Shown here piece after piece: positions 21,126 to 38,700 of a stretch of 64,000 nt of DNA (its first letter is position 1; each line of letters begins with the position of its first letter). A model generated the notes under the pieces. It saw nothing but the letters and a program-made list of their open reading frames with translations. It was not told the DNA's origin and did not search any database. Origin of the DNA: Kiritimatiellia bacterium (GTDB lineage Bacteria; Verrucomicrobiota; Kiritimatiellia; RFP12; UBA1067); the NCBI GenBank assembly GCA_017520845.1, contig JAFXEU010000082.1, positions 1,483-65,482 on the forward strand, written 5' to 3'. The translations under genes were made by a program, and so were the position numbers.

Positions 21126-22888
21126 ATCTTTATTTTCGCTTTCACGCCCTGGCCGGGCTTGCTTTCGATTGTGAATTCGCCTCCGAGAGCATTGACGCGT
21201 TCGCGTATGCCCTGAAGTCCGAAGTGACCTTGCAGGACGCCCGGTGCAGATATGGGATCAAAGCCGCAGCCGTTATCCGATACCGAACAGATCAGGTGTT
21301 CCCCCTCAAGCGCTCCCGCTACCTTTATATCTGTTGCCTTGCCGTGTCTCAGAGCGTTCACCACAAGTTCGCGAATCGACCTTAAGAGCGCATGAGCCGT
21401 CTTGTCCGACAGTTTACCGCGCGGCACATTGAACCGCACCGACACGCGTGTCTCGCCGATGTGCGGCCGGAGCGTTTTCAGGACCGCCTGCGTCATGTCT
21501 GGTTCCTCGAGCGCCTGGCTCCTTAGATCCCACAGACAGTCTCTCAGCTCGTCGCGACACGACTTGAGCGTTTTCTCCGCAATCTCAACGTGGCCCGCAG
21601 CAAGTTGCATTGAAACGCCGGTCAGATTTTGAGCAAGCGTGTCGTGAAGTTCAACCGCCAGTCGCGTGCGCTCTTCGGTACGGAGATCCGCTTTAACCCG
21701 CTCTATCTGCACACGGTAAAGTTCGCGTCCCTTGCGTGCGGCAGAGCGGCTGAGCGCGGCGTTCCAGAGGAGAATCGCTATAATTCCGCCGAGAAGGGCC
21801 CCAATTACCCAAAGTATACGTTCTGTCGTCCACCATGGCGGCCAAGCGACGATCTGGATGTCCGATGGGGTGCGCGTGACGAGTAAGAATCTGTGTATCT
21901 GCGGAAATACGGAGTTGGCCCGCCAGTCTTCTATATCCATAACGCATGTCCCGACAACCTCAATCGTGCAGCCGATTTCCATCTCTGCCGTCTTTTCCAA
22001 AGCGGCAGATGCATAGACCGGCACGAGCAGTCCTTCGTTTTCAATCATAAAAAGGCCATCTTCGTCGACTGTAGTGCGTACGATGCCGCGCAGTCTGACG
22101 GGCCGTCCGTGCATGTCGAAGCGAAATCTGGGTCTGCCTTCCGTATCGGTCGTAAGTGTTCTTGCGCTGGATTGCGCGGCTTCTTCCGGCGGCGCAGGTT
22201 TTTCTCGCGTTCTAGTCCACCATGCCCTTGATAAGGTATAGTGATGAAGGTCTGTTCCCGGAAATCCTGAAACATAGATGTGTTCGCCGTATTTCGGCAC
22301 ATTGTCGGTCGCGAGCCGTGCTATGACCAGTTCGTCTTTGCCGGCTGTCCCTTTACCGAGCAGAAGTACGTTGTTTTTTTTCCATACGGCGAGCACGATG
22401 CCGGAGAACCCGTGACGGTCACGGTGTTGAAGTTCTGAAGGGTCGGTTCCTTCAAGTCTTGTAACATCCGGTACGCTGAATATGTCGGTTGCGGGTTTTC
22501 TGTGAATGACGATCGCGTTGGAACTTTGGATCTGTAAATTGCGGCCTAACTTTTCGCGTTGGCCATATAAGCGGGGAATGGGCGTTCCGGTTGCAATGAT
22601 GCCTGCTCCGAGAAATGATGTGATCGTTTCGTCTGTAATATCATCAGCAGGGAAAGCTGCATAGATGATTTCTCCGTCCCATAGCAGTACGAGATAAATG
22701 TAATCCGGATTGATTTCGTCACGGAAAGCGTCCCTTACGATGCATTGCGCACGTATAGGCATCATGTCGTATTGTCCGGAGAGAAATTCATCCGCGGATA
22801 TGAGCGGCGGCAAGGTTTGTGCTGTGGCCGTCCCCGCGAGCAGTGCCGCGCATGCTGCGGCGATGAGATTTTTTAATATTGAATTCAT
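21122..22888 (-). CDS. sensor histidine kinase (HisKA_3 type) with ~330-aa periplasmic domain
   Basis: Signal/TM1, a large extracytoplasmic region, TM2 (ILWVIGALLGGIIAILLW), H-box LAVELHDTLAQNLTG, and ATPase motifs VSDNGCGFD and GLQGIRERV. 4-nt overlap with the regulator gene. Confidence 0.9.
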   Translation of the reverse strand: MNSILKNLIAAACAALLAGTATAQTLPPLISADEFLSGQYDMMPIRAQCIVRDAFRDEINPDYIYLVLLWDGEIIYAAFPADDITDETITSFLGAGIIATGTPIPRLYGQREKLGRNLQIQSSNAIVIHRKPATDIFSVPDVTRLEGTDPSELQHRDRHGFSGIVLAVWKKNNVLLLGKGTAGKDELVIARLATDNVPKYGEHIYVSGFPGTDLHHYTLSRAWWTRTREKPAPPEEAAQSSARTLTTDTEGRPRFRFDMHGRPVRLRGIVRTTVDEDGLFMIENEGLLVPVYASAALEKTAEMEIGCTIEVVGTCVMDIEDWRANSVFPQIHRFLLVTRTPSDIQIVAWPPWWTTERILWVIGALLGGIIAILLWNAALSRSAARKGRELYRVQIERVKADLRTEERTRLAVELHDTLAQNLTGVSMQLAAGHVEIAEKTLKSCRDELRDCLWDLRSQALEEPDMTQAVLKTLRPHIGETRVSVRFNVPRGKLSDKTAHALLRSIRELVVNALRHGKATDIKVAGALEGEHLICSVSDNGCGFDPISAPGVLQGHFGLQGIRERVNALGGEFTIESKPGQGVKAKIKI

Positions 22889-22896
22889 ACTGACAA

Positions 22897-22905
22897 ATTA
22901 TAACA
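22897..22905 (-). promoter_or_regulatory. extended -10 box TGtTATAAT (minus strand)
   Basis: The reverse complement reads TGTTATAAT, 8 nt upstream of the kinase ATG (22888). Confidence 0.5.
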
Positions 22906-22971: not shown

Positions 22972-23017
22972 CCCCCCCTGCCGAGGGGGTTGATTATGGA
23001 TTGAGACGTGGTAAAAT
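22972..23017 (+). promoter_or_regulatory. GC palindrome + -35 + extended -10 (promoter of GH2-like gene A)
   Basis: CCCCCT-GCCG-AGGGGG (22974-22989), then TTGATT (22990-95), 16 nt, then TGgTAAAAT (23009-17). The ATG at 23024 is 6 nt after the -10. Confidence 0.55.
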
Positions 23018-23023
23018 TTTTGT

Positions 23024-26000
23024 ATGAAAAACTGTTTTGTACTTGTCATCGCATTGTGTATGCTTGGTGTTGCTTCCGCAGAACCTGTTCGCGAAATGAT
23101 CGCGAAGCATTGGGAGGCGATTCCGGCGGCTGAAGCCTCTGAGACGATTCCGTCCGTTCCTGCGGAGAAATGGGGGAAGTGGAATTTCTGGAACGGTCAA
23201 TGGTGGGCGAGGACTATGTTTCAAAAGGAGGCTCAGGGGCCGTCATGGACTCCGCCGTCTGCCGGGTGCGACAAATCCTGGAGCGATTGGAAGTGCGTGT
23301 GGCTTAAGGCTCGCCGCAAGGTTTCCGGTGAATGGTCGGGGCGGAAGGTTGTAATTGAGCAGAGCGCCATTCGCGGTTGTACGGTCGGCGTGTTTGTCAA
23401 CGGCAACTTCATCGGGGAGATAAAAGCGCCTGCCGGTTCGCTCGACGTTTCAAAAGCTCTGAAGTTCGGACGCGAGAATGAATTTTGTCTGCGCCTTTCG
23501 GGAAAGAACCGGGATTTCAAATTGGAAAAAGACCCTCCGATGTTCGTCGTCAGGGATTCTGTTTCGGTCGATGATGTCTTCGCCTGCACATCGTGGCGCG
23601 AAAAGAAGTTGACGGTTGAATTTACCGTCACATCCGACAGGAAAGGTACGGCTGAAGTCGGCGCGGAGGTGTTGGACGCGGACGGCAAGGTCGTTAAGCG
23701 GCTTTCCGGCAAGTATGATGTCGTGCCCGGCGAAAACGTCTTTAAACCGTCTGTGGATTGGCCTGATCCGGTTACTTGGGAGCTGGGACGAGGTTACATG
23801 TACACGCTTAAGACATCCGTTAAAATCAACGGCAAAATCTGTCCTTATAAGGACGTTAAGTTCGGCTTTCGCGAGATATGGCGCGAAGGGAAGAAGATTT
23901 TCATGAACGGTCACGAGCAGAAGTTTCGCGTCACGTATAACTTCGCCTGCAACAGGTTCGGCGCCAAGTTCCTGCAAGGTATCGGTTATAACTGCATCCA
24001 GTTCGCCCACAGGACCGAACTTGATCCGCAAATGGACGAAAAAATGCTCGAATATCTTTCCGCAAACGGCATTTCCGCGATTATTCCCACCACGGCGTTC
24101 GACTGGAATACGAAAAATCCTCTCTTGAAGCCGGGCGAAAAAAGAGAAGAGTTTAAACGCCTTCAGGCGAAGAATCTCCGTCGCTACCGCAATTGGCCGT
24201 GTGTCGCTATGGTTTATATGGGCGTAAACTGTTATCTTCCGCAGTGGTCGTATGAAGCGAAGTATCTCGGTTGCGGCGACAGGAGCGACTTCGGGAAGAT
24301 GATGGCAGACCTCGTCGCGTCGGCGAAGAAGACGAATCCGAACGTCCTCTACTTCTCGCATTCCGACGGTTCCACCGGTGAAATCGCGTCTGCCAATCTT
24401 TACTTCAACTGGGTGCCTCTTCAAGAGCGTATTGAATGGCCGAGCGCTTGGGCGGGCGAGACGGGTAAGTTCCCGTTTCAGGCCTGCGAGTTCGGCCATC
24501 CCTATCAGATGAGCTGGTATCAGGACGGGCGCGATCTTGTAACCGAGTATCTCGCCGCGTATTACGGCGAAGAGGCGTATCTTAAGGAGCCGAAAACGAT
24601 ATCCGACCGTCACGTCGAGTCGCTCTATATTCGTCGCCTCCACCATCCGCTTTTGTGGCGCTTTACCGATGACTTCGTTACGCGCCTGACGCAAGCCTGG
24701 CGGACATACGGAATTAACGCGGGAATCGTCTGGTTTAATCTCGACTACGGCTTCGGTATGCCCCGCTGGACGCTTGAGGGAATCCACAATAAGTATAATC
24801 CGGCTTATAATTTCTTCAAGAGCGAGGCGGACGTGCCTAAAGGTCGCCCGGAATGGGCGCTTCCCTCATGGGATATCTACCGCAAAACCAACCTTGACTT
24901 TCTCGGTTGGATCGGTGGAGGCGGGTCTTTCACCGACCGCTGTCATGCGTACCGATCGGAGGCGATGATCGAAAAGCAGTGTATCTTCATTTGGGACGGC
25001 TTTGACTCGCGCGCTTTTTCCGCGAAATGGAAGGCGTTGATTAACGGTAATGAGATCGCTGCCGGCAACATCAGGCGCGAGCTCAAGTCGAATATCCCGG
25101 CGTTTGCACCGATTTCATTCAAGGCGCCTAAAGTCGTGAAAAAGGCGAAAGGGCGAATCCTCGCCACATTCTTCGATCAAAAGGGCGAAAAACTTTCCGA
25201 GGACGCGTTCGATTTTGAGGTTTACCCGGAAGCTTGCGTATCATGGAAAAAAGCTCCGCACTTCGCTCTTTACGATCCGACGGGGAAGATGGCCGAAAAA
25301 CTTAAATCCCGTGGAATTGATAAATTTAAAATAGTTCAGTCTCCAATGGAGGCTGTAAGCGGGTTTCTCGTTATTGCTGAAGATTCGCTCGGTAAGGACG
25401 GATTTAAGGCTTTGCCGATGGATGCGGTTGAAAAGGGGCTTCGTATACTCGTTCTTCGCCAGTCGTCCGAGGCTTGGAAGGCGTTCGGCTTTGAGGTGCA
25501 GGATCGTGCGAGTCGCACACTCTTTCTGCGGGATACCCAGTCTGCCGCGCTTAACAGAATCGACGACGATTGTCTCCGCGACTGGTCCGGAGCCTCGCCT
25601 GAACTTAGGGTTAAGCATCCTCGTCACGAGCCGCGATGGAAGGGGAATATGGCTCTTGCCGCACTGCAGCTTAAAACTCCTTCGATGGTCGGCTACCGTC
25701 CGCAGATTGAAGGGGAGTTTGATATGAATTATTCCGCGCTTCTCGATTATTCATGCGGTAAGGGCAGTGTTAAGTTCTGTACTCTCGACTTTTTTAATCG
25801 CGGCGCATCCGATGCGGCGGTGGAGCGCACGTTCAACGCGGTATTCTCCGATTTCCTCGCGCAGGGTGGCGCGAGGAGTACATCAGGACCTGCGGCGCAG
25901 AGACATATCGTCGCGTCGGGCGAAGAGGCTAAGCGGATTGCGGCGGAGATGGGCGCGGCCGTTAAACCCGGCGACAAGAGCGGTAAGGGCGATCTTCTGC

Positions 26001-26569
26001 TTGTCGGATCGGATTCTCCGCTTTCCGCCGGTGAGATTCTTGCGGCGGCGAAGCGCGGCGCGAACGTGCTCATTGTCGCGAACGATTCGGCCGCGAAGGG
26101 CCTTGGCCTCGCCGTGACGCCGCGCGATGGCGAGGGAACGTACCGCGTGGAGTTTGATCGCTCAAATCCGCTTTTAAGGGGAGTAGGTCAGAATGTCCTC
26201 CGCTGGCGCGACCGTCTTAAAGCACCGGTTCTCTCCGGGGGAGGGTGGACTGTCGATGCCGACGGGCTTATCGCCTCGAAGACGCTTGCGAACGGTGCGG
26301 TTATAGCGGTGACGACGTTTAGCCCTTACGCCATCGAGCGCGGCATCACCTCGGATCGGGTATTCGTCGTGGATGGTAAGCCGCGGGCGAACGCCGTTGG
26401 CGAGAAGAATCTCGCCGACTGCCGTCGACGCGCCGACATTTCCTTCGAGCGGAGCCGTCAGCTCGTCGCGCGGATCTTGACAAATCTCGGCGCCGCGCCA
26501 GGAAAACCGAAGAACTTGTATTCCGGTCTCGTAAGGCCGCTCGACCCGTATTTCTACACATACTGGTGA
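23024..26569 (+). CDS. secreted GH2-like glycoside hydrolase (paralog A), long C-terminal extension
   Basis: Signal MKNCFVLVIALCMLGVASA. The N-terminal sugar-binding/Ig-like region is followed by VKFGFREIWREGKKIFMNGHEQKFR, which matches the GH2 FGFR..(E/I)...G.F.LNG....RG junction. The rest is divergent. Ends DPYFYTYW. Clear paralog of 35711-39673. Confidence 0.8.
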   Translation: MKNCFVLVIALCMLGVASAEPVREMIAKHWEAIPAAEASETIPSVPAEKWGKWNFWNGQWWARTMFQKEAQGPSWTPPSAGCDKSWSDWKCVWLKARRKVSGEWSGRKVVIEQSAIRGCTVGVFVNGNFIGEIKAPAGSLDVSKALKFGRENEFCLRLSGKNRDFKLEKDPPMFVVRDSVSVDDVFACTSWREKKLTVEFTVTSDRKGTAEVGAEVLDADGKVVKRLSGKYDVVPGENVFKPSVDWPDPVTWELGRGYMYTLKTSVKINGKICPYKDVKFGFREIWREGKKIFMNGHEQKFRVTYNFACNRFGAKFLQGIGYNCIQFAHRTELDPQMDEKMLEYLSANGISAIIPTTAFDWNTKNPLLKPGEKREEFKRLQAKNLRRYRNWPCVAMVYMGVNCYLPQWSYEAKYLGCGDRSDFGKMMADLVASAKKTNPNVLYFSHSDGSTGEIASANLYFNWVPLQERIEWPSAWAGETGKFPFQACEFGHPYQMSWYQDGRDLVTEYLAAYYGEEAYLKEPKTISDRHVESLYIRRLHHPLLWRFTDDFVTRLTQAWRTYGINAGIVWFNLDYGFGMPRWTLEGIHNKYNPAYNFFKSEADVPKGRPEWALPSWDIYRKTNLDFLGWIGGGGSFTDRCHAYRSEAMIEKQCIFIWDGFDSRAFSAKWKALINGNEIAAGNIRRELKSNIPAFAPISFKAPKVVKKAKGRILATFFDQKGEKLSEDAFDFEVYPEACVSWKKAPHFALYDPTGKMAEKLKSRGIDKFKIVQSPMEAVSGFLVIAEDSLGKDGFKALPMDAVEKGLRILVLRQSSEAWKAFGFEVQDRASRTLFLRDTQSAALNRIDDDCLRDWSGASPELRVKHPRHEPRWKGNMALAALQLKTPSMVGYRPQIEGEFDMNYSALLDYSCGKGSVKFCTLDFFNRGASDAAVERTFNAVFSDFLAQGGARSTSGPAAQRHIVASGEEAKRIAAEMGAAVKPGDKSGKGDLLLVGSDSPLSAGEILAAAKRGANVLIVANDSAAKGLGLAVTPRDGEGTYRVEFDRSNPLLRGVGQNVLRWRDRLKAPVLSGGGWTVDADGLIASKTLANGAVIAVTTFSPYAIERGITSDRVFVVDGKPRANAVGEKNLADCRRRADISFERSRQLVARILTNLGAAPGKPKNLYSGLVRPLDPYFYTYW

Positions 26570-26616
26570 CCCCCTCCGCAGAGGGGGTTGGGATATTCTC
26601 GATGTTTGATTATAAT
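26570..26616 (+). promoter_or_regulatory. GC palindrome + -35 + -10 (promoter of the Gly-rich operon; may double as terminator of the upstream gene)
   Basis: CCCCCTC-CGCA-GAGGGGG (26570-26587), then TTGGGA (26588-93), 17 nt, then TATAAT (26611-16). AAGGAGG lies 8 nt before ATG 26658. Confidence 0.5.
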
Positions 26617-26657
26617 ATAATTATCCTTGTAATCAATAGAAAAAAGGAGGTCATAAG

Positions 26658-27695
26658 ATGAAGTCAATAAGAGCCGCACTGCTGGTAACTGCTCTTGCGC
26701 CGCTACTTTCCGAAGGGGCGTTTCTCGACGATCTTGCTGCAAAGAGCAACAGGACGCAGGAATCGCCGTTTGCGACGGGCGGCGACATAATACTTAAGAT
26801 ATCCTCGCGGGAGTATGTGCATATATTTACGAATGTGAATACAGTGTCGACATTTCAGCTGACAGAAAGGTCGATAGCTCGCATTCTTTGTGTGGGAGGC
26901 GGCGGTCCTGGCGGGAACTACCATGGTGGGTACACCCTTCATGGCGGTGGTGGCGGTGCAGGCGGATTTGTGGAGAAGAATGATGTTATGCTCACTGCAG
27001 GTATGTATGCGATCGAGGTTGGTAAAGGTGGTGTGCCATCTGCACCTAATGTTGTCAACAATTCTGGCGGTGAATCTGCAGTAAAGCGCGGAGAGACTGA
27101 CATCGTGCGTGCGCATGGCGGCGGTGGCGGTGGCTCGCCTTCTGGGTATGGCGCCTTGGCGAATGCCGACGATCCTCGATGCGGGCGTAACGGCGCGTCC
27201 GGCGGCGGCTCGTGCGCATGGAACTATGGTGACAAGACGGGCATAGGCGGAAACGCCAAGTACGAGGGTACGGAAGGCAATCGCGGAGGGCTTGCGAAAG
27301 GGAAAAGCGAAGGAGGAACGGACATCCGCGGGGGCGGCGGAGGTGGCGCTGGTGCGACGGGGAACGACAACAACGCCGCCACGAATCCCGGCAAGGGTGG
27401 TGACGGCCGGTCCTGCGACATTACTGGCGATGAGCTCTGGTATGCTGGAGGTGGTGCCGGAGGATTCGCTGGTTCGCAAAACATGTCGATTGCAGGAGGT
27501 CGCGGCGGCGGCGGTTCGGTTGAAATCAGAAGTCAAAAAATTATAGAGACTGCTGCCGTGCGGGGTACAGGCGGCGGCGGATATGGCGGAACAATGGTAA
27601 GTATGGGTGAAAAAAAGGCCGGCAACGGTGCCGACGGGATCGTCATCGTGCGCGTCGTAAGGGCAGCTGAAGGCTTTAAGGTTATTGTCCGATAA
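26658..27695 (+). CDS. secreted glycine-rich-domain protein (Gly_rich / ALK-GRD-like module, copy 1)
   Basis: Signal MKSIRAALLVTALAPLLSEGA. RILCVGGGGPGGNYHGG..HGGGGGAGGFVEKNDVMLTAGMYAIEVGKGG ... AHGGGGGGSP ... GNGADGIVIVRVV. Ends GFKVIVR. Confidence 0.85.
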   Translation: MKSIRAALLVTALAPLLSEGAFLDDLAAKSNRTQESPFATGGDIILKISSREYVHIFTNVNTVSTFQLTERSIARILCVGGGGPGGNYHGGYTLHGGGGGAGGFVEKNDVMLTAGMYAIEVGKGGVPSAPNVVNNSGGESAVKRGETDIVRAHGGGGGGSPSGYGALANADDPRCGRNGASGGGSCAWNYGDKTGIGGNAKYEGTEGNRGGLAKGKSEGGTDIRGGGGGGAGATGNDNNAATNPGKGGDGRSCDITGDELWYAGGGAGGFAGSQNMSIAGGRGGGGSVEIRSQKIIETAAVRGTGGGGYGGTMVSMGEKKAGNGADGIVIVRVVRAAEGFKVIVR

Positions 27696-27712
27696 TTATA
27701 TAGAGGTAATTT

Positions 27713-30700
27713 ATGAGAATCGGGAAATTAGCGTTTTTGTTGGCGATTTCTGCCAATGTATTCATCCCTGCTGCGCGTGCGGCCGTATACCGCGTTTCGC
27801 CTGATGCGGCTGATTCGTCGTCCGGCGCGAGCTGGAGTGAGGCGACTACATTGTCGGATGCGCTTTCAAGAGCGAAAAGCGGCGACGAAGTCTGGCTCAA
27901 AAGCGGTCAGTATACGTTCTCGACAACTTTAGGCGTCGGAGCCGTTGTCTCGACGGACGCTAAAATCCGCGGCGGATTCGCCGGAACAGAGTCGTCCGCT
28001 TCCGAACGCACGTTTTCCGATTCTACCGTCCTAAAAGGCGCCGTTACCAACCTTTTGGTAAATGCGCCTTCGGGTCTTGTCGAAATCGACCACATCACCG
28101 TCAAAGGCGCGAAAGGGCATGGAATATTCAAGAAAGGAGCCGCTTCGCTCGCGCTTTCTTATGTAAATTCCGAGGAGAACGGAATTGTCGAGACGTCGGT
28201 GAACGTCGACTATTCCACCGACGGCCGCGGCGGATTCTTCACGGGCGACGCAACGTCTAGCGAACTCACCCTCGACCACTGCGTATTCCGCGGCAACCGC
28301 GAATGGCGTCCGGGAGGCTTCGCCACCTTCAATATCGATGGCAAGGCCAAGACGACCGGCATCGGCCTTATCGCCAAAAACTTCAAGCGCGTATATATGA
28401 CCGATTGTCTTATGGTCGGTAACGGCCTCAGGCAGCAGGACAAAATAGGCGGCGGTATTGCTGCCATGGTAAGCCCGCCTGGGGAAAATCGGCCTACGCA
28501 AAGTGTATTCTACTTCGAGAATGCCCCGCTTACGGCGACGAGGGTTAGATTTATAGGTAATCGTACGGGAGCTTCGGGCACTCGCGGCGGGCGTCTTACT
28601 TATATTAAGGGCGGAAATGGTTCTTCCTTCGTCGATTGCGTATGGGCCGCGAACGATTTCGTGTGCGCCAAGCCCAAAACCTACACGAGTCCGTCCGGGT
28701 ACAACCAGTGCGGTTCTCTCGTCTTGGACCTCGGCTCGCAGACGGCTACGGCGACCATTTCCGGATGTACTTTCGCGTATAACGTCTCCGGCCTTGGCTG
28801 GACGGCGGGACTGAACGTTGAACAGGGTAAGGTGACCGTCGACAAAAGCGTCTTTTTTGGGAATGTCATAAGCTCCTATTTCGGCAGATTCGCCGATTTG
28901 CACGTATGTTACCGAGGCAGCTGCACTGTTAGCGATTCCGTTTTCAGAGGGCGCGGCGGAATGTATTTTGATGACTCGAATACACGTTTGACGATAGACG
29001 AGAGTTGTCGCTACGGCGATCCTGATTTCAAGACTACGCCTCAGGAATTTATTTCTAAATATGTCACTTTGGGCGTAGGTGTAGATGGCAATGACAATGC
29101 GACAACGATGTCGCTTACTGATGAATCGTTTCCGTTTGTCGAGAAGAAAGCCTCATTCCCTACGGGGGGGTATTGGAACGGATTTACCTTTTGGGTAACA
29201 AACGATTCCAATGTCGAGGCGATCGACTTGACGCGCGGCGAGTTTAAGCCGATTGCCCAGAGTGAACCGGAGGCTCCTGACACAAGTTGCGATTGGGCGC
29301 GCAAGACGCTTGGCGTTGAACCCGTCCAGACGTACTACATGCCCAACACCTTCATGCCATACGAAACGATCGGCTGCCAGAGCATCAGCGGGCACAAAGT
29401 CTTCTGGTTCAACCACACGTACGACCCGGACTGGGGCGGGGTCTATCCCGAACAGGAAGACCGTTTCGCTCTTGCAAAGCCCTCCGACGGCGACAATCCC
29501 GGCCGTCCGCTTCTCGTGGTGCTGCATTCGCGCGGCGGCGGTAAGTCCGGCGCGGAAGGAACGATCGGCTCGCTTGGCAATTCGGACAGCGTCGCATATT
29601 GTCCGCCGGAGTTCTACGGGCTTGTTCTCGATTGTATGGGCGATGTCGGAAAGAAAGACAGAGACTATACCGTGCTCAACGATTTCTGGTGGGGGGCAAT
29701 GCCGCCGGGAACAACGGCCAATGGAAACGCCGGTCATGCTATGGGTGGGTCATATTGGACATTTATTTACGGAACGCTTATGGGAGAGCTTTTTGACGGT
29801 CCGACCAAGGATCCGTGGAAGAACGCGATCCATCCCGTTGAAACTTGTTTACAGTGGCTTTCTCGCGGCGAGCCGCCCGCGTCGAAGCGCGTGATGGATA
29901 CGATTGAATGGGTCGTCAGAAAATATAAGATCGACCGTAACCGTATTTATCTTTGCGGCAATTCAATGGGCGGTCAGGGTTCTCTCGGTATCGGGCTTCC
30001 GCACGGTGAGGTTTTTGCCGCCATAAACGGAAATGTTCCCGCCACCATCTGGTATGCGGCCAAGCGCATGGGGTTCGTCGATAACAACGGCAACGATGTG
30101 TCCTTCGAGGATTATCAGGTGCCCGCCTACGACCCTCCGTTCCTTCTCGACTGGTCAGGCTCAGATGATGCCTGGAGTCGTGATCACGATGTCCTGTATC
30201 GTAACATGTCGCGCTTCAAATTCGGCATGATCGGCTGGTGGGGCGACTACGGACATTGCGGCGGCAAGAAGAGCGCACGAGAGAAGAATGATCTCGTCGA
30301 GCAATTCCCGTGGCTTGAAATCCGCAAGAACGAGGCTTATCCCGTTTTCACGGCGGCCTCTACCGACGATCAACTTCCTTGGCCGCAGGTCAGCTGGTAC
30401 GATACCGGAAATGTCATTATTGAAAACGGCATCGAAAAGGTCGATGCCGGGCTTGTGCCGCGTCTCGGGTGTGATACGAACGGACAGGTAAACGCCTGGT
30501 TCCGCTGGGATGTCAAGGCCGACACGCCGGAAACATTTGAAATCGACCTTAAAATCGCAAATTCCGATGAGGTCGCGTCGACTCAGTTTACCCGTCCGAC
30601 CGTATCGGTGGTGGATGTTACGCCTCGCCGCTTGCAGGCTTTCAAGCCGACGACCGGTAAGGTGCGCTGGACCTACGGAACTCAGACCGGCGTCGTCGCC

Positions 30701-33700
30701 AAGGACGCCAAGCTCGGCGTATATACAATTCCGCAGATCCCGGTTTCGCAGACGCCTACGACTCTTAAGCTGGTCGCTGTTCCTGCCGACACGCCCGTAG
30801 GTCGGGAAGAAGCGGACAATGTGGCGATTCCTCCTTCTGCGCCTGCAGCGGTGATTTACGATGGAACGCTCAAGACAGCGGAACTTTCGGGGGGTGTAAA
30901 CTGCATCGTTTCCGGAAACACCGGTTGGACGGATGCCGGCGAGTATACGATTACATGCTCACCGAATGAAGGTTTTGTATGGGTCGACGGCACCTCTGAA
31001 CCGAAAAGTTACAAATTTGTAATTTCAAAGGCCGCGAATTCTTGGTTGCGCGAGCCTTCCATTTCAGCTACCGGTTGGGAGGCGGGAAAATGCAGTACCG
31101 TTGTTGATGAGGGCGAGGCGTCTTTCGGTACGGTAGCGGCAAGTTATAGTACTGAGCAATTGGCGACTCTGGAGGCTGGGAATTACGAGATTACATTCTC
31201 TGTAGCCGAGACTAAAAATTACACTGGACTTGAAAAGCGCATACCTTTTAGCGTATCCGTATCCCAGCCACCCACCGATGACGGAGAGGATCCGGAGGAG
31301 CCGGAGGATCCAAGCCCCGCGATGATGGTCTCGCTGACCTTCGATGACGGTTATGGCAGCCATTATTCCGTTGTTGCGCCTGCGCTCGAGAAGTACGGCT
31401 ATCGCGGTACGTTTAACATTATTGTCAATCAGACGGGCCGTTCGCGCAGCGGGGCGACGATGGATTGGGCGAAAGTCGCCGAACTGGCTGCACGCGGGCA
31501 CGAGATAGCACTCCATTCGAAGTCGCATCCCGAGTCTCTTTTAGAGGGTTGGAATCCCAAGCCGGAATCGGTCCTGCGCTATGAGATGGATCTGGGACAG
31601 CAGCAGATCTCGCAGAAGATCGGAGTGCCTTGCCGCATTTTCTGCTTTCCGGGCAATCATGTCGGGAAGAACGGAGAACTTGAATCGCGCGCCAATCTGG
31701 CCGGTATGCTAGACGAGACGCCGAACCGCGCCTGGCCAGGGACGGGGGATTTCAAGGCTTGGTTCCAGAGCCTGTCGAAGAGCGGGACTAAGTCGATCAC
31801 GCTGATGTTTCACGGATGCAATAGCGACTCAGGCTACCAGGATCTTACCAAGGAACAGTTTGAGGAATTTGCAAAAACGCTGAAGGAGTGTGAGGACGAG
31901 GGGCTTATTAAGGTCGTCAGCTATTGGGAGGCTGGCGCTCTGAAAGGTGACTTGTCGGCCGTAGCCGTACCGTTCGTGCCGCATGTCTTTTATGATGGGA
32001 CTGTCCGTTCCCCCGTCGTGCGTCTTGACGGTTGCGTGATGGAGCCTTTCGCCGGTGCGACAGACGCGGGCGAATACGAGCTTTCCTTCTCGTTGGCGGA
32101 TCCCGACAAGCATTGGGTCGGCGGCGGAAGCGGCGTGAAAAAGGCTACCTTCATCATCGAGAAGAGCGACGTCTGGCTGGACGCTCCTAAGTTGAGCCGC
32201 TCGCGTTTCGCAGCGAACGGCGAGCTCCCCACGCTCAACGCATTCGTTCCCTCCGAGGGAGTGACGGCAACGCTTGACGGCCAGCCGTTCGATTGGAAGA
32301 GCGGTGTGCTTGCGAACACTGTCGGTGAGCATACGCTTGTATTCACTGCCCCGGAGAGCAAGAACTTCACCGCGTTGACCCACGAACTTACGTATGTTGT
32401 TACGGCGACGGACGAGTCGCTTGACTGGGTTGAGACGGATGGCGCGTCGTATTTCGATCCGCAGGTGTGGCCAGGCTCAAATACGACGGTTACCGTCGAG
32501 TACGCCACCGATACGCTTCCGACTGAAAAGTATCCTGCGACGGTTTTTGGCTCTCACGGATGGGACGAGACGTATTTTCGTTTCGTGCAGAAGGCTGACG
32601 GAGCGACAGAGGCGGACTGGGGCGGCACGAGCGAGCGTGTCCTTCAGATTCCCCTTGATCGCCAATGGCATACGCTGACGATGGGCGCGAACGGCCTTTC
32701 GCGCGACGGAGCGACGTTCGCTTCGTTCACGTCGGACTGGTTCGGCGATTCGACGAATCTCCTCTTCGGCGCGGACAATCTCGGCTGGGACAACGACATT
32801 GCCAACGGGAGCGTGCGCTCGCTTTCATTCGGGCGCATTCGCTACCGTTCGATTGAAGTACGCGAACGCGGTGTTCTCGTGCGCTCGCTCCGTCCTCTTC
32901 GGATTGGCGGCGAAGCTGGACTTTGGGACGACGTCGAGGCCCGGTTCTACGGTAACGCCTTTTCGTCAGGAACGATTCTCGGCAGCGACGAGTATCAGCC
33001 CGTCTATGCGCCTTACGACGGCGAGGTTTCGGTCGTTTCAGGCAATAAGTCCACTGTCGAGGGGCAGACTCTCCTGACGTTCGTCGATCCTTCGGCGATG
33101 GGGCATTTCACGCTTACAAAGCCGGCGATAGCCTGGATTCTTGCGGTTGGCGGCGGCGGTAGCGGCGCGGTCGAGGCTGGGCATGGTCGGTCCGGCGGAG
33201 GAGATGGCGGCGCCTTCGTCGAGCGTAAGGCGGTCTCCCTTGAGGCGGGAACCTACGATGTTGTCGTCGGTGCCGGCGGTGCGGCAGTGCAGGCCGTCTG
33301 GGCAACTGATGTCCCCAGTAATAACGGCGAGCCGTCTTCCGTGTCCATGGCGGGTGAGACGTCCGCGCCGATTATCACCGCCCCGGGCGGCGTCGGCGGC
33401 AGGCAGGGAAGCTCGATCTTGAACTCCGGCAATGGCGGCAATGGCGCGGGACAGGCGGGCTTGGCGGGATCCTATGAAGTCGGCGGTAACGGCGGCTACG
33501 GCGAGGAGTCTGCAATTACCGGCACGGTTGTCACGTACGCCGCAGGCGGCGGCGGTTCGGGGATGACCACGGCCGGGCGCGGCGGCGTCGGCGGCGGCGG
33601 AAATGCCGCCACTCCAAACGGCGGCGACGGCGCAGCAGGTGAGGACGGTAAGGGCTCCGGCGGAGGAGCGGCCTCAAAGTCCAATCAATATTCCGGCAAG

Positions 33701-35605
33701 GGTGGCAACGGTGTCGTTTATGTGCGCATTCTCGGTCTGGATGCGGACACGCCTCAGTCGCCAGATCCGTCGACTCCGGAAATAACGCAGATAGCATTAC
33801 CCTCTGCCGTTTCTGGCCTTGTGTACACAGGTCAGGAGCAGGTTGGCGTTCTCCCCGGTGACGGCTACGAAGTTACAGGAAATACGGCAGTTGATGCCGG
33901 CACTTATGAGGCAACGGTGGTATTGTCAAATCCTGAAGGAACACAGTGGGCAGATGCCGGTGCCAATGAGCGTAAGATTTCGTGGTTCATCGCTCAGGCT
34001 CTTAACGAATGGACTCGACCGGCCGCTATTACCGAGACGGAATGGACTTTAGGCAGTTCAGCCGGGGTTGTTACATCACCGCTTGCGCGTTTCGGCGAGG
34101 TGACGGCTACTTTGAACGGCGAACCCTGGGATGGTGAAATGCCGGTAGCAAAAGGCTCTTATACATTGCAATGGACTGTGGCCGCTTCTAAAAACTGGAC
34201 GGAACTTTCGAAATCGCTCACGTTTGCGATTGTAGATAAGCCGGCAGTGGTTGAAGGGGATGCCGAAGTTTCAGCAATTGAAAACACCTTCGCCAAATAC
34301 AGGGATGGAGGTGATCTCGTGCTCGTATTCTCGAATACGACGGCTGTATCGTCGTTTACTCTTGCCTCTTCCGCGTCAGCGCGTATTCTTGTTGTCGGTG
34401 GCGGCGGAGCAGGCGGCTGTCAGGGCGGCAACGGCCGTGCGGCCGGCGGCGGTGCCGGCGGCTTTCTTGAAATGGCCGATGTCGTTTTCACGCCTGGAAC
34501 TTATGACGTTACGGTGGGTGCGGGCGGCTCGAGTGTAAATAATACCGGATCGATCGTGGGCGGTAGCGGCGGCGATTCGTCGATAACGAAAGGCGGCGAC
34601 TGCATAGCGCTTGCCTACGGCGGCGGAGGAGGAGGCGCGGAAGGGAAGCCTGGCGCGGCCGGCGGCAGCGGCGGAGGCGGCGGCGGGTGCGGCGGCTGGA
34701 CTTCTTATTCTTCTCCCGGAGCCGCGACGCAGGCTGGTTCCCCGTTCGAGGGGTATGGCAATGCAGGCGGTGCAACCAGCATAGCGAATGCAGGATCTGG
34801 CGGCGGCGGCGCAGGCAAGCCCGGAGCGAGCGTGGGCTATCAAGCCACGCAGGGCGGAGACGGCGGCGAGGGCAGGTTGAGCGACATAACAGGAGAGAGC
34901 GTTTGCTATGCAGGCGGCGGTGGAGGAGCTGGTTCGACGGCAGGCGGTGTCGGCGGACTTGGCGGCGGCGGCTCCGGTTCCGCGGGGGCTTACGCCGCCG
35001 GTCGGGCGGGTGCTGACGGTCTCGGCGGCGGCGGCGGCGGGTGCGGCGGCGGAAACCACGGCTACTTGTCTGGGAAAGGCGGGAGCGGCGTCGTGATAGT
35101 TCGCCTCACGTTTGTGGGCGGCGGCGAGCCGGAGACGCTTCCAAAACCGCAGGTAGACGGCGTCGATGTCGAGCCTGGCAAGCTCGCTGAAGAAGCCAAG
35201 AGCGGAATGGAAATCGTAATCCCGCAAGGATCCAAAGTCTCTATTGATCCTGAAACCGGAAGTGTGACGCTTGACGGATCGGTTGTTTGCACCTTCCCCG
35301 GCTATTATACGGTGAAAGTGTCCGATTCCTCCACAGGCGGAGCGCAAGTGGTCGCGCTTGAACTTAATGAAAGTGCCCGGCCTTCCATATTGGATGTAAT
35401 GCTCGACAACGGAGAATTTTGTATAACGGTTCCTGATACTATTTCAGGGTTGTTTTACTCGCTTGAATACAAGCGTTTGCTCAATGCTCCCTCATGGGAT
35501 AAGATTGATGTGCCTATTCAGTCGACGGGTGAAGCCAAAATGGTATTGCGGGCGAAGGCTCAGGATGATTCTGGGTTCTACCGCGTTAGCGTGAGCGACA
35601 GGTAA
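27713..35605 (+). CDS. giant (2630 aa) secreted multidomain protein: beta-helix + alpha/beta-hydrolase esterase + Ig/MBG-like repeats + CE4 deacetylase + jelly-roll + 2 Gly-rich modules
   Basis: Starts 17 nt after the previous stop. Signal ..IPAARA|AVYRV. The beta-helix N-cap is SWSEATTLSDALSRAKSGDEVWLKSGQYTF. Esterase motifs are LLVVLHSRGGG (29522-42) and GNSMGG (29957-74). CE4 motifs are SLTFDDG (TFDDG 31337-51) and HEIALHSKSH. Gly-rich modules start WILAVGGGGSG (about 33133) and RILVVGGGGAGG (about 34381), and each ends GKGG.GVV.VR. Confidence 0.9.
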   Translation: MRIGKLAFLLAISANVFIPAARAAVYRVSPDAADSSSGASWSEATTLSDALSRAKSGDEVWLKSGQYTFSTTLGVGAVVSTDAKIRGGFAGTESSASERTFSDSTVLKGAVTNLLVNAPSGLVEIDHITVKGAKGHGIFKKGAASLALSYVNSEENGIVETSVNVDYSTDGRGGFFTGDATSSELTLDHCVFRGNREWRPGGFATFNIDGKAKTTGIGLIAKNFKRVYMTDCLMVGNGLRQQDKIGGGIAAMVSPPGENRPTQSVFYFENAPLTATRVRFIGNRTGASGTRGGRLTYIKGGNGSSFVDCVWAANDFVCAKPKTYTSPSGYNQCGSLVLDLGSQTATATISGCTFAYNVSGLGWTAGLNVEQGKVTVDKSVFFGNVISSYFGRFADLHVCYRGSCTVSDSVFRGRGGMYFDDSNTRLTIDESCRYGDPDFKTTPQEFISKYVTLGVGVDGNDNATTMSLTDESFPFVEKKASFPTGGYWNGFTFWVTNDSNVEAIDLTRGEFKPIAQSEPEAPDTSCDWARKTLGVEPVQTYYMPNTFMPYETIGCQSISGHKVFWFNHTYDPDWGGVYPEQEDRFALAKPSDGDNPGRPLLVVLHSRGGGKSGAEGTIGSLGNSDSVAYCPPEFYGLVLDCMGDVGKKDRDYTVLNDFWWGAMPPGTTANGNAGHAMGGSYWTFIYGTLMGELFDGPTKDPWKNAIHPVETCLQWLSRGEPPASKRVMDTIEWVVRKYKIDRNRIYLCGNSMGGQGSLGIGLPHGEVFAAINGNVPATIWYAAKRMGFVDNNGNDVSFEDYQVPAYDPPFLLDWSGSDDAWSRDHDVLYRNMSRFKFGMIGWWGDYGHCGGKKSAREKNDLVEQFPWLEIRKNEAYPVFTAASTDDQLPWPQVSWYDTGNVIIENGIEKVDAGLVPRLGCDTNGQVNAWFRWDVKADTPETFEIDLKIANSDEVASTQFTRPTVSVVDVTPRRLQAFKPTTGKVRWTYGTQTGVVAKDAKLGVYTIPQIPVSQTPTTLKLVAVPADTPVGREEADNVAIPPSAPAAVIYDGTLKTAELSGGVNCIVSGNTGWTDAGEYTITCSPNEGFVWVDGTSEPKSYKFVISKAANSWLREPSISATGWEAGKCSTVVDEGEASFGTVAASYSTEQLATLEAGNYEITFSVAETKNYTGLEKRIPFSVSVSQPPTDDGEDPEEPEDPSPAMMVSLTFDDGYGSHYSVVAPALEKYGYRGTFNIIVNQTGRSRSGATMDWAKVAELAARGHEIALHSKSHPESLLEGWNPKPESVLRYEMDLGQQQISQKIGVPCRIFCFPGNHVGKNGELESRANLAGMLDETPNRAWPGTGDFKAWFQSLSKSGTKSITLMFHGCNSDSGYQDLTKEQFEEFAKTLKECEDEGLIKVVSYWEAGALKGDLSAVAVPFVPHVFYDGTVRSPVVRLDGCVMEPFAGATDAGEYELSFSLADPDKHWVGGGSGVKKATFIIEKSDVWLDAPKLSRSRFAANGELPTLNAFVPSEGVTATLDGQPFDWKSGVLANTVGEHTLVFTAPESKNFTALTHELTYVVTATDESLDWVETDGASYFDPQVWPGSNTTVTVEYATDTLPTEKYPATVFGSHGWDETYFRFVQKADGATEADWGGTSERVLQIPLDRQWHTLTMGANGLSRDGATFASFTSDWFGDSTNLLFGADNLGWDNDIANGSVRSLSFGRIRYRSIEVRERGVLVRSLRPLRIGGEAGLWDDVEARFYGNAFSSGTILGSDEYQPVYAPYDGEVSVVSGNKSTVEGQTLLTFVDPSAMGHFTLTKPAIAWILAVGGGGSGAVEAGHGRSGGGDGGAFVERKAVSLEAGTYDVVVGAGGAAVQAVWATDVPSNNGEPSSVSMAGETSAPIITAPGGVGGRQGSSILNSGNGGNGAGQAGLAGSYEVGGNGGYGEESAITGTVVTYAAGGGGSGMTTAGRGGVGGGGNAATPNGGDGAAGEDGKGSGGGAASKSNQYSGKGGNGVVYVRILGLDADTPQSPDPSTPEITQIALPSAVSGLVYTGQEQVGVLPGDGYEVTGNTAVDAGTYEATVVLSNPEGTQWADAGANERKISWFIAQALNEWTRPAAITETEWTLGSSAGVVTSPLARFGEVTATLNGEPWDGEMPVAKGSYTLQWTVAASKNWTELSKSLTFAIVDKPAVVEGDAEVSAIENTFAKYRDGGDLVLVFSNTTAVSSFTLASSASARILVVGGGGAGGCQGGNGRAAGGGAGGFLEMADVVFTPGTYDVTVGAGGSSVNNTGSIVGGSGGDSSITKGGDCIALAYGGGGGGAEGKPGAAGGSGGGGGGCGGWTSYSSPGAATQAGSPFEGYGNAGGATSIANAGSGGGGAGKPGASVGYQATQGGDGGEGRLSDITGESVCYAGGGGGAGSTAGGVGGLGGGGSGSAGAYAAGRAGADGLGGGGGGCGGGNHGYLSGKGGSGVVIVRLTFVGGGEPETLPKPQVDGVDVEPGKLAEEAKSGMEIVIPQGSKVSIDPETGSVTLDGSVVCTFPGYYTVKVSDSSTGGAQVVALELNESARPSILDVMLDNGEFCITVPDTISGLFYSLEYKRLLNAPSWDKIDVPIQSTGEAKMVLRAKAQDDSGFYRVSVSDR

Positions 35606-35607
35606 AA

Positions 35608-35645
35608 GGGCAGGGCGGCTTCGAGACGAAGCCGCCCTTTATGTT
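35608..35645 (+). terminator. rho-independent terminator
   Basis: GGGCGGCTTCG (35613-23) pairs with CGAAGCCGCCC (35627-37) around a 3-nt loop. It is followed by TTTATGTT, directly after stop 35603-05. Confidence 0.7.
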
Positions 35646-35659
35646 GGAATAAAACAATA

Positions 35660-35704
35660 CCCCTCAAAGGAGGGGGTTGTGCGGCAGGTTTGATTTGATA
35701 TAAT
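35660..35704 (+). promoter_or_regulatory. GC palindrome + -35 + extended -10 (promoter of GH2-like gene B)
   Basis: CCCCTC-AAAG-GAGGGG (35660-75), then TTGTGC (35677-82), 16 nt, then TGaTATAAT (35696-704). The ATG at 35711 is 6 nt after the -10. Confidence 0.55.
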
Positions 35705-35710
35705 TCAAAT

Positions 35711-38700
35711 ATGAAAATACGTTTGTTTTTTGCTGCAACGATTGCTGCTTTCTCTGCGTTGGCTGCATTTAAAGAAGGAAAAACTCTTATCCCCGCTGAA
35801 TGGAAGGGTAAGAGCGTTCGCTATGAGCAGAAGCTCGCCTTTTGCGAGGTGGATGTTATGGTGAACGGAAAGAAGGCCGGTACCGCGTATGCGCCGGACG
35901 GTACGGTCGAACTTGCGCCGTTACTTAAATATGGCGTCGAGAACGAAATCACGACCATTGAACGCAAGGCGGACGCGTACTACGGACGCGGCGACGAGCC
36001 TTCAGGCGCGAGGCGCGACGGAAGGCACCGTCTTTCCGCCGCCGCGCTTGTGCCGCGCAGCGTCGCGTGGATTGATGATTTTTTTGCGCGTCCTTCGTGG
36101 CGCGAGAAGAAACTTTTCGTCGAGGTTGAGATTGAGTCCCTTGATCGCGTGCGCGCCGTCGTTGAAGTCGAGCTTTCTGACTTGCAAGGCTCTCCGGTTC
36201 TTAAGCGGGCTAAAAAAATCTCCGAACTTGAAAAGGGCTCCAATGTCGTGACGGTTGAATTGCCGTGGACGGACGATATCGTCGCATGGGAGCCTGTCGC
36301 CAATGCCAAAACTTACGATTGCAGAGTAAAAATGGCGGTTGGCGGCAAGGAATGCGATTCACGCCGTCCGCGTTCGATGATCGGCTTTCGCGAGATCTGG
36401 CGCGAGGGCAAGGAGATCATGCTCAACGGTCATGTGCAGCGGTTTCGCGGCTTTTGGAATCAGGGGCTTCCGGCAAACGCGTCGGATGTTCATCTTTACG
36501 GCTACAACCTTTCGTACGAGACGCATAAGCATTGGGCGTATTGGTGGGAGAATGAGGGAGATCTTGCCCGTAAGTCTTCCGTGGGAATTGCGGTATTTAC
36601 GGGTATGCCGTCGATTTATTACGTTCATGAAGCGATCCGCCGCGACCCCAAGTGCACAGAGCAGTTTAAGCGTTCGCTTAAGTCTTGGATGCGTTCCTGG
36701 CGCAACTATCCGTGCATTGTGGCCGCCTCTACCGGCGTCAACCAGATATGCCCCGAGCGCAATATGCGCCCCGAGATCCTCGGGCAGGTGCGCGAAGAGG
36801 GCGGAGTCGTGGACAATATCGAGTTCGCCGCCGCGATTGCCCGCGAGATGAACCCCAACTGCCTGTACTTCTCGCATGCCGACGGTACCGAGGCCGATAT
36901 CTCCTCTTCGAATCTTTATTTCAACTTTACACCCCTCCAAGAGCGCGAAGAATGGCTTTCGCAGTGGGCGACGAACGGGATTCTCCCCTGGTACGCCGCA
37001 GAGTTCGGCGCTCCGTACTACGCCTGTTGGTTTCACAGCCGTGTTCCCGAGATGACGGAGTGGCTTGCCGTTTACTATGGCGAGCGGGCATACGAATTGG
37101 AGAGCGATAAAATGCTCGTTCACACCCGGGATTTCGCGAAAAGTTGCCTTAGGTTCACTCACGGCGGCTGGGTTGAGCCCGGACGGCGCGATCTCTATCA
37201 CTTTCATCCGCTCGCGGAGGAGTTCTCTCGCCTGCTCGTTGGACGGGTCAACCGCGCGTGGCGCACATACGGTCAGAACGGCGGGCTTATGTATCTTCAG
37301 TCCTGGGCGTGGGATAAGCCGAACGTTATCCGGGAGCGCCAGTGTGTGGCGAACGGCGATTTCGTAGCGTACATCGGCGGATATCCCGAGCCTACGGATA
37401 AGACGCATGCTTACCGGCCGGGAGATGAGGTTAGAAAAAATCTCGTTTTTGTTTGGGACGGCCTCGGAGAAAATGAAGTCACCGCCAAATGGCGCATAGA
37501 GGAAATAGGCGGCGGCGTCGTCGCCTCCGGCGTTAAGAAGGTCAAACTGAATCAAGGTGATATCAGGCTTCAGCCGGTTGCGTTTAAAACCACTGACGTA
37601 AATGCCGAAAAACGCTATCGCCTTTCTGCGGAGTTTTCGACAGCGAAGGATGGAGACAATCCGGCCAATGCCACCGTAAAATCCGATTCGGTAGAATTTG
37701 AAATTTATGCCAAGCGTCTCCCCCGCGCGTGGAAAGGCGCACCGGTGGCGCTCTTTGATCCTGCGGGAAAAACATCCCCGATCCTTGATGGTTTCGGCAT
37801 AAAGTACGTTAAAGTCAATTCGCTCGGCGATCTCCCGAAGAATACGGAGCGCCTTATTGTCGGTTGGCGGGCTCTTTCGTCGGCGCAGGGGCTGGAGAAG
37901 CTTACGCCGCGTGTGGAAGAAGGGCTTAAAATTCTCGTCATGCAGCAAACGGCTGATGTTTGGCAGTCGCTCGGTTTCACGGTTGAGGATTCCATGGCGC
38001 GACAGATGTACAACGTGTCGCTCGAACGTGTCGCCGACCGGGATCTCGGGTACTGGGCTGGTGCGCCGGTCGAGGACGCGGTATTCGGAAATGTGATGAA
38101 GCACGAGACGCGGCGTGGGCCGCGCTGGACGCATACGCATGCCGTTTCGGCGACGCCGATTTTAATTCCGCAGAAAGCGGGGTTCCGTCCGCTTGTCCGA
38201 GGCGAATTTGACATGTCATACACGGCGCTTATGGAGGAGGTGACGGGTGAGGGTTCCGTCACATTCTGCGCGTTTGACTTTGAAGGGCGGACGGAAAAGT
38301 GTCCTGCCGCCTGGCGCGTCGCATCGGCGACGATAGAGCGCTTTCTCCATGGTGAGACTTCCGCGCCGACGAGAGTCTACACTTTAGGAAAGGCGGCTGA
38401 GAGGTTGGCGAAGACGATGTCCATTGAAAGCTCGCCGTACAAAGGCGGTGTGCTTGATAATGCGGAGCTTCTCATCGTTGGGCCGGACTCGGAAGTCGAC
38501 TTCGCAAAAATTGAGAAGTCCGTCGGGTCGGGCCGTGCGTACATCTTCGGAAATCAACAGCTCGCAATCGAGGCCGGGATCGCCGATTCTACTGGCGTAG
38601 TATACAGGGTGCGAAATTTTAAATCTCTTCCCGCTTCCGTTTTTAGAGGCGTAGGCCCTTCGCTTCTCAGGTGGCGCGACGGAGTTAAAGTGTCGCGCTT

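Follow-up and report, generated by a model that had tools for sequence, protein, structure and literature searches.

A GC-rich palindrome at glycan-enzyme promoters as the predicted operator of a NarL-type two-component system in a Kiritimatiellia bacterium

In a 64,000-nucleotide stretch of the genome of a Kiritimatiellia bacterium (contig JAFXEU010000082.1 of assembly GCA_017520845.1, positions 1,483 to 65,482; hereafter the window), a GC-rich palindrome runs directly into the -35 element of three promoters of a block of GH2-like and glycine-rich genes, next to the genes of a two-component system. Sequence comparison leads us to read this palindrome as the operator of the adjacent NarL/FixJ-family regulator, which would control the three promoters of secreted glycan enzymes from a class-II-like position; we give this reading a probability of about 0.78. 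The initial annotation had proposed such an operator, defining a small regulon. The proposal, still a prediction, gains support from the occurrence of the palindromes beside regulators of this family, from their spacing in congeners and from their covariation with the recognition helix.

Palindromes and promoters in the window

Re-reading of the sequence matched exactly the three palindromes first annotated, each running into (G)TTG. The predicted operators and the promoters that they adjoin are:

22974..22989: operator site 1 (predicted), CCCCCT-GCCG-AGGGGG, preceded by two extra C
22990..23017, plus strand: promoter of GH2-like gene A, TTGATT (22990-95), 16-nt spacer, TGG-TAAAAT (hexamer 23012-17), then 6 nt to ATG 23024
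26570..26587: operator site 2 (predicted), CCCCCTC-CGCA-GAGGGGG, a perfect 7-4-7 palindrome
26588..26616, plus strand: promoter of the Gly-rich operon, TTGGGA (26588-93), 17-nt spacer, TATAAT (26611-16)
35660..35676: operator site 3 (predicted), CCCCTC-AAAG-GAGGGG(G), the palindrome proper (35660-75) followed by a G
35677..35704, plus strand: promoter of GH2-like gene B, TTGTGC (35677-82), 16-nt spacer, TGA-TATAAT (hexamer 35699-704), then 6 nt to ATG 35711

The distance from the last paired G to the -10 hexamer is 22-23 nt at all three sites, and the dyads lie 30.5-32.5 nt from the start of the -10 box. In an 18-bp frame, site 1 spans 22972-22989 with 7 C on its distal side; its dyad, between 22981 and 22982, is 30.5 nt from the -10 start and falls at -42.5 if the A of ATG 23024 is +1. 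The corresponding values are 32.5 nt and about -44.5 for site 2, and 31.5 nt and -43.5 for site 3, if the A of ATG 35711 is +1. These positions near -43 are counted from predicted starts, which are based on the leaderless spacing peak described below. The -10 boxes at sites 1 and 3 are TGn-extended, and the -35 hexamers of the window promoters are poor beyond TTG.

Analysis of the whole genome (open reading frames, ORFs, of at least 120 aa) revealed that the distance from TGnTAnAAT to ATG peaks at 6-9 nt, with 32, 37, 32 and 23 cases, above a background of 0-6 cases at distances 0-5 and 2-15 at 10-20. About 125 near-leaderless cases at 6-9 nt were thus obtained with this strict motif alone, and a scrambled control motif gave 0-2. 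Because of this peak, leaderless or near-leaderless mRNAs appear common in this organism, and the extended -10 box can be relied on as a landmark. With exactly 6 nt between the -10 box and ATG, sites 1 and 3 agree with the leaderless pattern, and the mRNAs of GH2-like genes A and B are probably leaderless; in the Gly-rich operon mRNA, a leader carrying an AAGGAGG ribosome-binding site precedes ATG 26658. A G-run before the -35 box was rejected as a general promoter feature: no G enrichment was found at -41 to -36 across 837 intergenic TGnTAnnnT boxes.

The pattern CCCCY-N4-8-RGGGGTTG matches three distinct places in the window, where shuffled sequence would give 0.01, and neither a pattern scan nor an operator cross-match of the window yielded the further copy that the initial annotation had also failed to find. 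The 10-mer GAGGGGGTTG is common to the three sites and has five copies in the 2.74-Mb genome, three of them here. The sites might therefore be relics of a duplicated promoter cassette, alike by descent and without function, all the more as two sites on another contig of the same genome (C48, see below) clearly arose from a gene duplication that took in the promoter. However, the three window sites do not align beyond the palindrome and the promoter hexamers, their arms are kept while the 4-nt centres differ (GCCG, CGCA and AAAG), and many species have this architecture with sequences unrelated to these, which makes such an origin extremely improbable.

The genes concerned, as assigned by Pfam for the individual proteins, and the -10 box of the kinase operon are:

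20505..21125, minus strand: NarL/FixJ-family response regulator (receiver and GerE helix-turn-helix), the proposed palindrome binder
21122..22888, minus strand: HisKA_3 sensor kinase, with a 4-nt overlap with the regulator gene
22897..22905, minus strand: extended -10 box of the kinase operon (TGTTATAAT), 8 nt ahead of the kinase ATG
23024..26569, plus strand: GH2-like protein A, 1181 aa, predicted target gene
26658..27695, plus strand: Gly_rich_2 protein, 345 aa
27713..35605, plus strand: Gly_rich_2 and polysaccharide deacetylase protein, 2630 aa
26658..35605, plus strand: predicted target operon formed by the Gly_rich_2 and Gly_rich_2/deacetylase genes
35711..39673, plus strand: GH2-like protein B, 1320 aa
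35711..41119, plus strand: predicted target unit of GH2-like gene B and, 7 nt on, a GDSL-type esterase gene (479 aa)

The regulator matches Response_reg and GerE, the kinase HisKA_3 and HATPase_c. The solved structures closest to the regulator are VraR (1e-34), NarL (2e-29) and DesR, and its recognition-helix segment is GISIYVVKEHIAAL. No close ortholog of GH2-like gene A was found in 40 relatives, where the best match reached 30% identity and belonged to another family.

The palindromes as possible terminators

The GC hairpins could instead act as intrinsic terminators poor in U, or as insulators, keeping read-through from passing between genes that each have their own promoter; that they lie so near the -35 box would then reflect mere compaction. 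As RNA they are stable (-12.6 to -17 kcal/mol); site 2 begins immediately 3' of the stop codon (TGA) of GH2-like gene A, and several C48 sites lie at or right after stop codons. A terminator consensus scan flags site 1 on both strands and site 3 on the minus strand. The tails that follow the palindromes are TTGATTATGG, TTGGGATATT and GTTGTGCGGC, and a loose scan on the plus strand flags site 1 only. The Gly-rich operon, for its part, ends in a separate terminator:

35612..35646, plus strand: canonical intrinsic terminator of the Gly-rich operon, a 12-bp stem (35612-38) followed by TTTATGTT, with an RNA hairpin of -23.7 kcal/mol

Site 3 begins 21 nt after this stem, and the ordinary terminators of this genome have clear T tracts, as do the few CCCC...GGGG hairpins that do not abut promoters. 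Site 1, like 11 or more sister palindromes in related genomes, lies between divergent promoters, where no transcript ends. The -10 distance is fixed within 2-3 nt, a spacing that termination does not need. The palindromes at the same position in some sister loci are rich in AT, for example GTATACCTTGGTATAC and ACTACCATGTCTGGTAGT, and would make poor hairpins; the covariation of palindrome and DNA-binding helix likewise speaks against termination. The view that the element is not simply a terminator is thus supported, and a pure terminator function is very unlikely, although an added terminator or insulator role at the tandem genes is possible. The RNA/DNA structural switch suggested as an alternative in the initial annotation found no support, since sister operators such as GTATACCTTGGTATAC keep the position and not the GC hairpin. 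A G-quadruplex or i-motif was also considered and rejected: each site has only one G-run or C-run per strand.

A second locus and an orphan site in the same genome

A genome scan located promoter-abutting perfect CCCC...GGGG hairpins only on the window contig (C79) and on contig C48, in each case beside one of two paralogous NarL-type systems, and once, with different spacing, on contig C94. Nine of the ten sites of the genome thus lie in the two loci that hold its only two regulators of the family. The regulator has one close paralog only (52% identity), encoded on contig C48 and adjoined by a paralogous kinase. The pair is flanked by six sites of the palindrome CCCCCTAATTTGAGGGGG, at 10820, 15338, 19560, 25106, 26874 and 28768, each 21-23 nt from a -10 box. 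The 10820 site is placed between the leaderless kinase promoter (TAAAAT, 6 nt, ATG 10782) and a divergent promoter. The genes that follow the six sites (C48:10820-28790) encode a 200-aa secreted protein, a 563-aa protein, a PKD protein, two paralogs with a twin-arginine translocation (TAT) signal, one of them an FAD oxidoreductase, and a GH28 enzyme; GH97, GH39 and beta-lactamase-fold proteins are also encoded downstream or nearby. By its sequence organization, this region reads as a second regulon, that of the paralogous two-component system.

The first target gene of C48 shows a frame conflict (C48:10829-13219): the ORF that begins at ATG 10887, where a ribosome-binding site and a signal peptide are recognizable, is only 200 aa long, and a 796-aa ORF overlaps it in another frame. 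A frameshift or an error of assembly may be the cause. After the 19560 operator, the -10 region GGGTAGTGGTAGAATAC is tandemly duplicated (C48:19590-19625), so that two extended -10 boxes lie at an interval of 17 nt. Runs of 7-14 C lengthen the distal arm at C48:19546-19565, 26861-26879 and 25098-25111 and at 22972-22978 of the window.

The orphan palindrome, CCCCCTT-TGGC-AAGGGGG (C94:11347-11364), precedes, at 35 nt instead of 22-23 nt, the TGGTATAAT box of a gene for a SASA-type carbohydrate esterase, and no family regulator is present on the 18.9-kb contig C94. This orphan, together with the C-run/G-run arms common to several operator classes, could suggest a single reader, such as a global regulator or a nucleoid protein that recognizes G-runs, with the neighbouring two-component genes a coincidence. 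The concentration of nine sites in the loci of the two family regulators argues against it. In two congener genomes (G071 and G006), moreover, every match to the C-run/G-run-plus-promoter pattern lies about 2 kb, the length of one kinase gene, from a family regulator, and both the inner arm bases and the non-GC variants track the helix of the adjacent regulator. A different reader is accordingly highly improbable.

Fixed spacing in related loci

The genus as a whole has roughly 250 members of the regulator family, an expansion in which single genomes carry from 0 to 19 copies (E<1e-30). A pattern search of 60 congeners returned many cases in which C-run/G-run palindromes with varied inner arms and centres abut TTGnnn-17-TAnAAT. 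For an unbiased view, 40 congener loci were picked by regulator similarity alone, and all perfect 18-bp-frame palindromes of any sequence were scanned against all extended -10 boxes. The dyad-to-hexamer distances cluster, with 12 at 32.5-33, 4 at 33.5-34 and 3 at 34.5-35, none at 2-28 and scattered singles beyond; these counts include orthologous loci, and their shared ancestry is ignored. The identical scan over the whole of the present genome was flat. When one arm mismatch was allowed, a site was present in 25 of 42 loci, several of the remainder being on broken-off contigs. Palindromes of 16-18 bp, with the dyad 32.5-34.5 nt from an extended -10 box, are thus present beside both orthologous and paralogous systems.

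In 11 loci, a single palindrome has -10 boxes at the fixed distance to its left and to its right. One of the two boxes is followed, 6-11 nt on, by the start of the kinase gene, and the first gene on the other side often encodes a carbohydrate-active enzyme (CAZyme): GH31 (four times), GH88, GH2, GH78 rhamnosidase or a PL6-like beta-helix protein (twice), and also a LamG-domain protein. The genes downstream of the palindromes are mostly CAZymes (GH2, GH31, GH88, GH78, GH28 and PL6-like). The autoregulatory layout of C48 and of most sister loci is absent from the window, because the kinase -10 box lies 79.5 nt from the dyad of site 1.

Between G071 and G006, the promoter-side run differs (8 versus 6 G) and the operator-to-(-10) spacing shifts from 23 to 25 nt. 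Such homopolymer length differences at operators could be slippage or an assembly error in metagenome-assembled genomes (MAGs). A further locus, L046 (G073:C72:1-13000), has two tandem kinase-regulator pairs and one CCCCTACCATGGTAGGGG palindrome 1.7 kb later, where the helix match points to the second regulator.

Operator sequence and recognition helix

The palindromes differ between paralogs, even inside one genome, and are identical across several sites of one locus. The pairs of operator arm and recognition helix are:

arm CCCCCTC, helix GISIYVVKEHI (this window)
arm CCCCCTAA, helix GIRxDGVNxHV (five loci, C48 included)
arm CCCCCAC, helix GISxDMVKEH
arm CCCCTACC, helix GISLPMVKEHL
arm CCC(C)TACG/A, helix VRDYL or TVREHV
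arm ACCCGTG, helix GLSxRSVEEHV
arm TCCCTCA, helix DISLESVKSHI
arm TCTCCCG, helix SISVDRVEQIV
arm GTATACC, helix GISLVMVKKHV

Mantel tests on 25 pairs revealed a correlation of operator arms with the helix (r=0.43, p=5e-5) that exceeds the one with the receiver domain (r=0.27, p=0.01) and persists after the receiver is regressed out (r=0.34, p=4e-4); the p-values are descriptive, as they ignore the shared ancestry of orthologs. Operator cross-matching at up to two arm mismatches gives matches within operator classes, with close classes not separated. The K/N/R/E position of the V-K-E-H motif aligns with Lys188 of NarL in an ungapped comparison with 1a04, assuming that the 215-residue chain lacks Met1. 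In NarL, the base contacts are made by Lys188, Val189 and Lys192 (PMC10853779). The two paralogs of this genome differ exactly there (SIYVVKEHIA versus RTDGVNEHVL). Taken from sequence, the idea that each operator is specific to its cognate regulator is supported.

Proposed mechanism and direction of control

Physical binding, the transcription starts and the nature of the signal are what we infer in the following model. The kinase would sense an extracellular signal, probably a glycan fragment, and the phosphorylated regulator would dimerize on the 7-4-7 inverted repeat, each helix-turn-helix reading one C-run/G-run arm. The dimer would end exactly at the start of the -35 box, with its dyad at about -42.5 to -44.5, and from there would most likely recruit RNA polymerase to the three promoters with their extended -10 and weak -35 boxes. 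GH2-like gene A, the Gly-rich/deacetylase operon and GH2-like gene B with the esterase would thereby be switched on.

As to the direction of control, we consider activation (about 70%) more probable than repression (about 30%). In the repression scenario, the adjacent regulator would bind the palindrome but block the upstream edge of constitutive promoters until the signal arrives. This could work because TGn extended -10 promoters often need no -35 box or activator and can be self-sufficient, and a palindrome of another regulator on contig C45, read as an AraR-like repressor-type site, has the same geometry. That palindrome, AACCTGTATTTACAGGTT, occurs twice (C45:45285 and 46848), an extended -10 box lying 31.5-32.5 nt from its dyad. 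Yet no site extends into the spacer or the -10 box. Each stops precisely at the -35 box, which in divergent promoters holds for both sides, and from this position NarL and TraR activate; the poor -35 hexamers also fit repression badly. In two-component systems, an operator at the system's own promoter usually serves autoactivation, which counts further against repression. As a full account of the sites, repression by the adjacent regulator seems unlikely, if by no means negligible.

Several points weigh against the operator reading as a whole. Arm length and central spacing are not constant between sites (16-19 bp), and the kinase promoter, given the 79.5 nt noted above, does not abut the palindrome. 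To these are added the hairpin stability, the stop-codon positions and the possible terminator role already described, the self-sufficiency of extended -10 promoters, and the shared ancestry behind the spacing counts and the Mantel values.

A wider reading joins several of these features. The GC-clamped operator would also stop or insulate read-through at the tandem genes, and homopolymer slippage would change the operator-promoter spacing and so tune or phase-vary the glycan-enzyme units; separately, the family would be a Kiritimatiellae counterpart of the polysaccharide utilization locus (PUL) sensors of Bacteroides, with a readable helix-to-half-site code. The 7-14 distal C at several sites, the 5-8 promoter-side G in sister species and the operator-to-(-10) distances of 21-25 nt are compatible with slippage. 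We regard the combination as quite improbable.

The kinase sensor domain

Residues 1 to about 390 of the kinase (window 21720-22888, minus strand) had no significant Pfam match and no PDB sequence match. An AlphaFold model, built on a 7-sequence alignment with a mean predicted local distance difference test (pLDDT) score of 81, places three beta-barrel modules between two membrane helices, so that the extracytoplasmic part of about 350 residues is predicted to consist of tandem barrels resembling the oligonucleotide/oligosaccharide-binding (OB) fold. The best PDB matches to this model in Foldseek were the tandem OB-fold proteins HIN-200, RPA and TEBP, with a best E of 3e-8 and low TM-scores (0.2-0.4). 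Among 150 genomes from 89 genera of the class, the domain was found only in this genus, bar one weak match (E 3.7e-12). A kinase-alignment search of wider taxa retrieved mostly generic HisKA_3 kinases and about five full-length relatives, all from Kiritimatiellae or Verrucomicrobia MAGs. An oligosaccharide ligand is a guess from the regulated genes.

Other intergenic elements

An intergenic element present in several copies, CACCCCATTGGTGGGGTGA(A/G)A(G/C)TGGTGGGGTGAA, often has a TATACT/TATAAT-like box after it and resembles the 'CACCCCAT box' of another genome. Its copies are:

C112:24668
C31:1609
C38:10279
C43:488
C45:10441 and C45:10643
C61:353
C67:26843 and C67:43069

Comparison with known systems

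Our literature search found no published work on the control of Kiritimatiellae glycan-degrading enzyme sets; a 2026 preprint noted two-component genes in Kiritimatiellia CAZyme clusters and described no operator. The sites provide a concrete promoter/operator model for Kiritimatiellae and suggest that small regulons of uncultured gut and rumen species can be predicted directly from sequence. The paralogs also form a natural regulator/operator series for how NarL-type helices choose half-sites.

The closest parallel in protein architecture is NarX/NarL of Escherichia coli, which likewise pairs a receiver and LuxR/GerE regulator with a HisKA_3 kinase (NarL match, E=2e-29). A NarL dimer binds a 7-2-7 site at -43.5 (yeaR) or -44.5 (ogt), immediately ahead of a weak -35 box, and recruits RNA polymerase via the alpha C-terminal domain (PMC10853779). 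As at those promoters, inverted heptamers precede a weak -35 box here with the dyad at -42.5 to -44.5, and one dimer would be enough. Unlike the NarL heptamers (TACYYMT, 2-nt gap), the arms are C-runs and G-runs with a 4-nt gap (7-4-7), and binding is predicted. The modelled sensor, with its tandem OB-like barrels, differs from the nitrate sensor of NarX; the targets are secreted glycan-active enzymes, and many target mRNAs are leaderless.

The 7-4-7 layout has its counterpart in SsrB of Salmonella (SPI-2), another NarL/FixJ-family member, which reads an 18-bp degenerate palindrome whose 4-bp spacer is least conserved (PMC2837388). Both regulators are associated with several promoters of one gene block and with a site at the regulator's own operon, here in sister loci only. 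The SsrB sites are AT-rich and flexible in position and serve host-cell adaptation, whereas those described here are rigidly placed and linked to glycan use.

TraR of the Agrobacterium Ti plasmids has the same type of helix-turn-helix. Its tra boxes, 18 bp long and placed at about -45, adjoin the -35 box; traCDG and traAFB, two operons that diverge, are driven from one of them, and no contacts are made to the central bases (PMC3907764). The 18-bp repeats here adjoin the -35 box in the same way, and a single box would serve two divergent operons at C48 10820 and at 11 sister loci, while site 1 of the window would serve one promoter only at this distance. TraR responds to an acyl-homoserine lactone in its N-terminal domain rather than to phosphorylation; the present regulator has a phospho-receiver there and so is not a LuxR/TraR family member.

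With the hybrid two-component and SusR regulators of Bacteroidetes PULs, the resemblance is one of function only, both being lineage-expanded sets of envelope glycan sensors, putative ones here, encoded beside their CAZyme genes. The Bacteroidetes hybrids join kinase, receiver and AraC domains in one polypeptide, whereas the kinase and the NarL-type regulator are separate here and the sensor fold is different; no SusC/SusD partners were seen. The switch mechanism itself is conventional and of a known kind. What is specific here is a genus-restricted radiation of sensor/regulator pairs with paralog-specific operators and a rigid promoter layout that is often bidirectional and leaderless.

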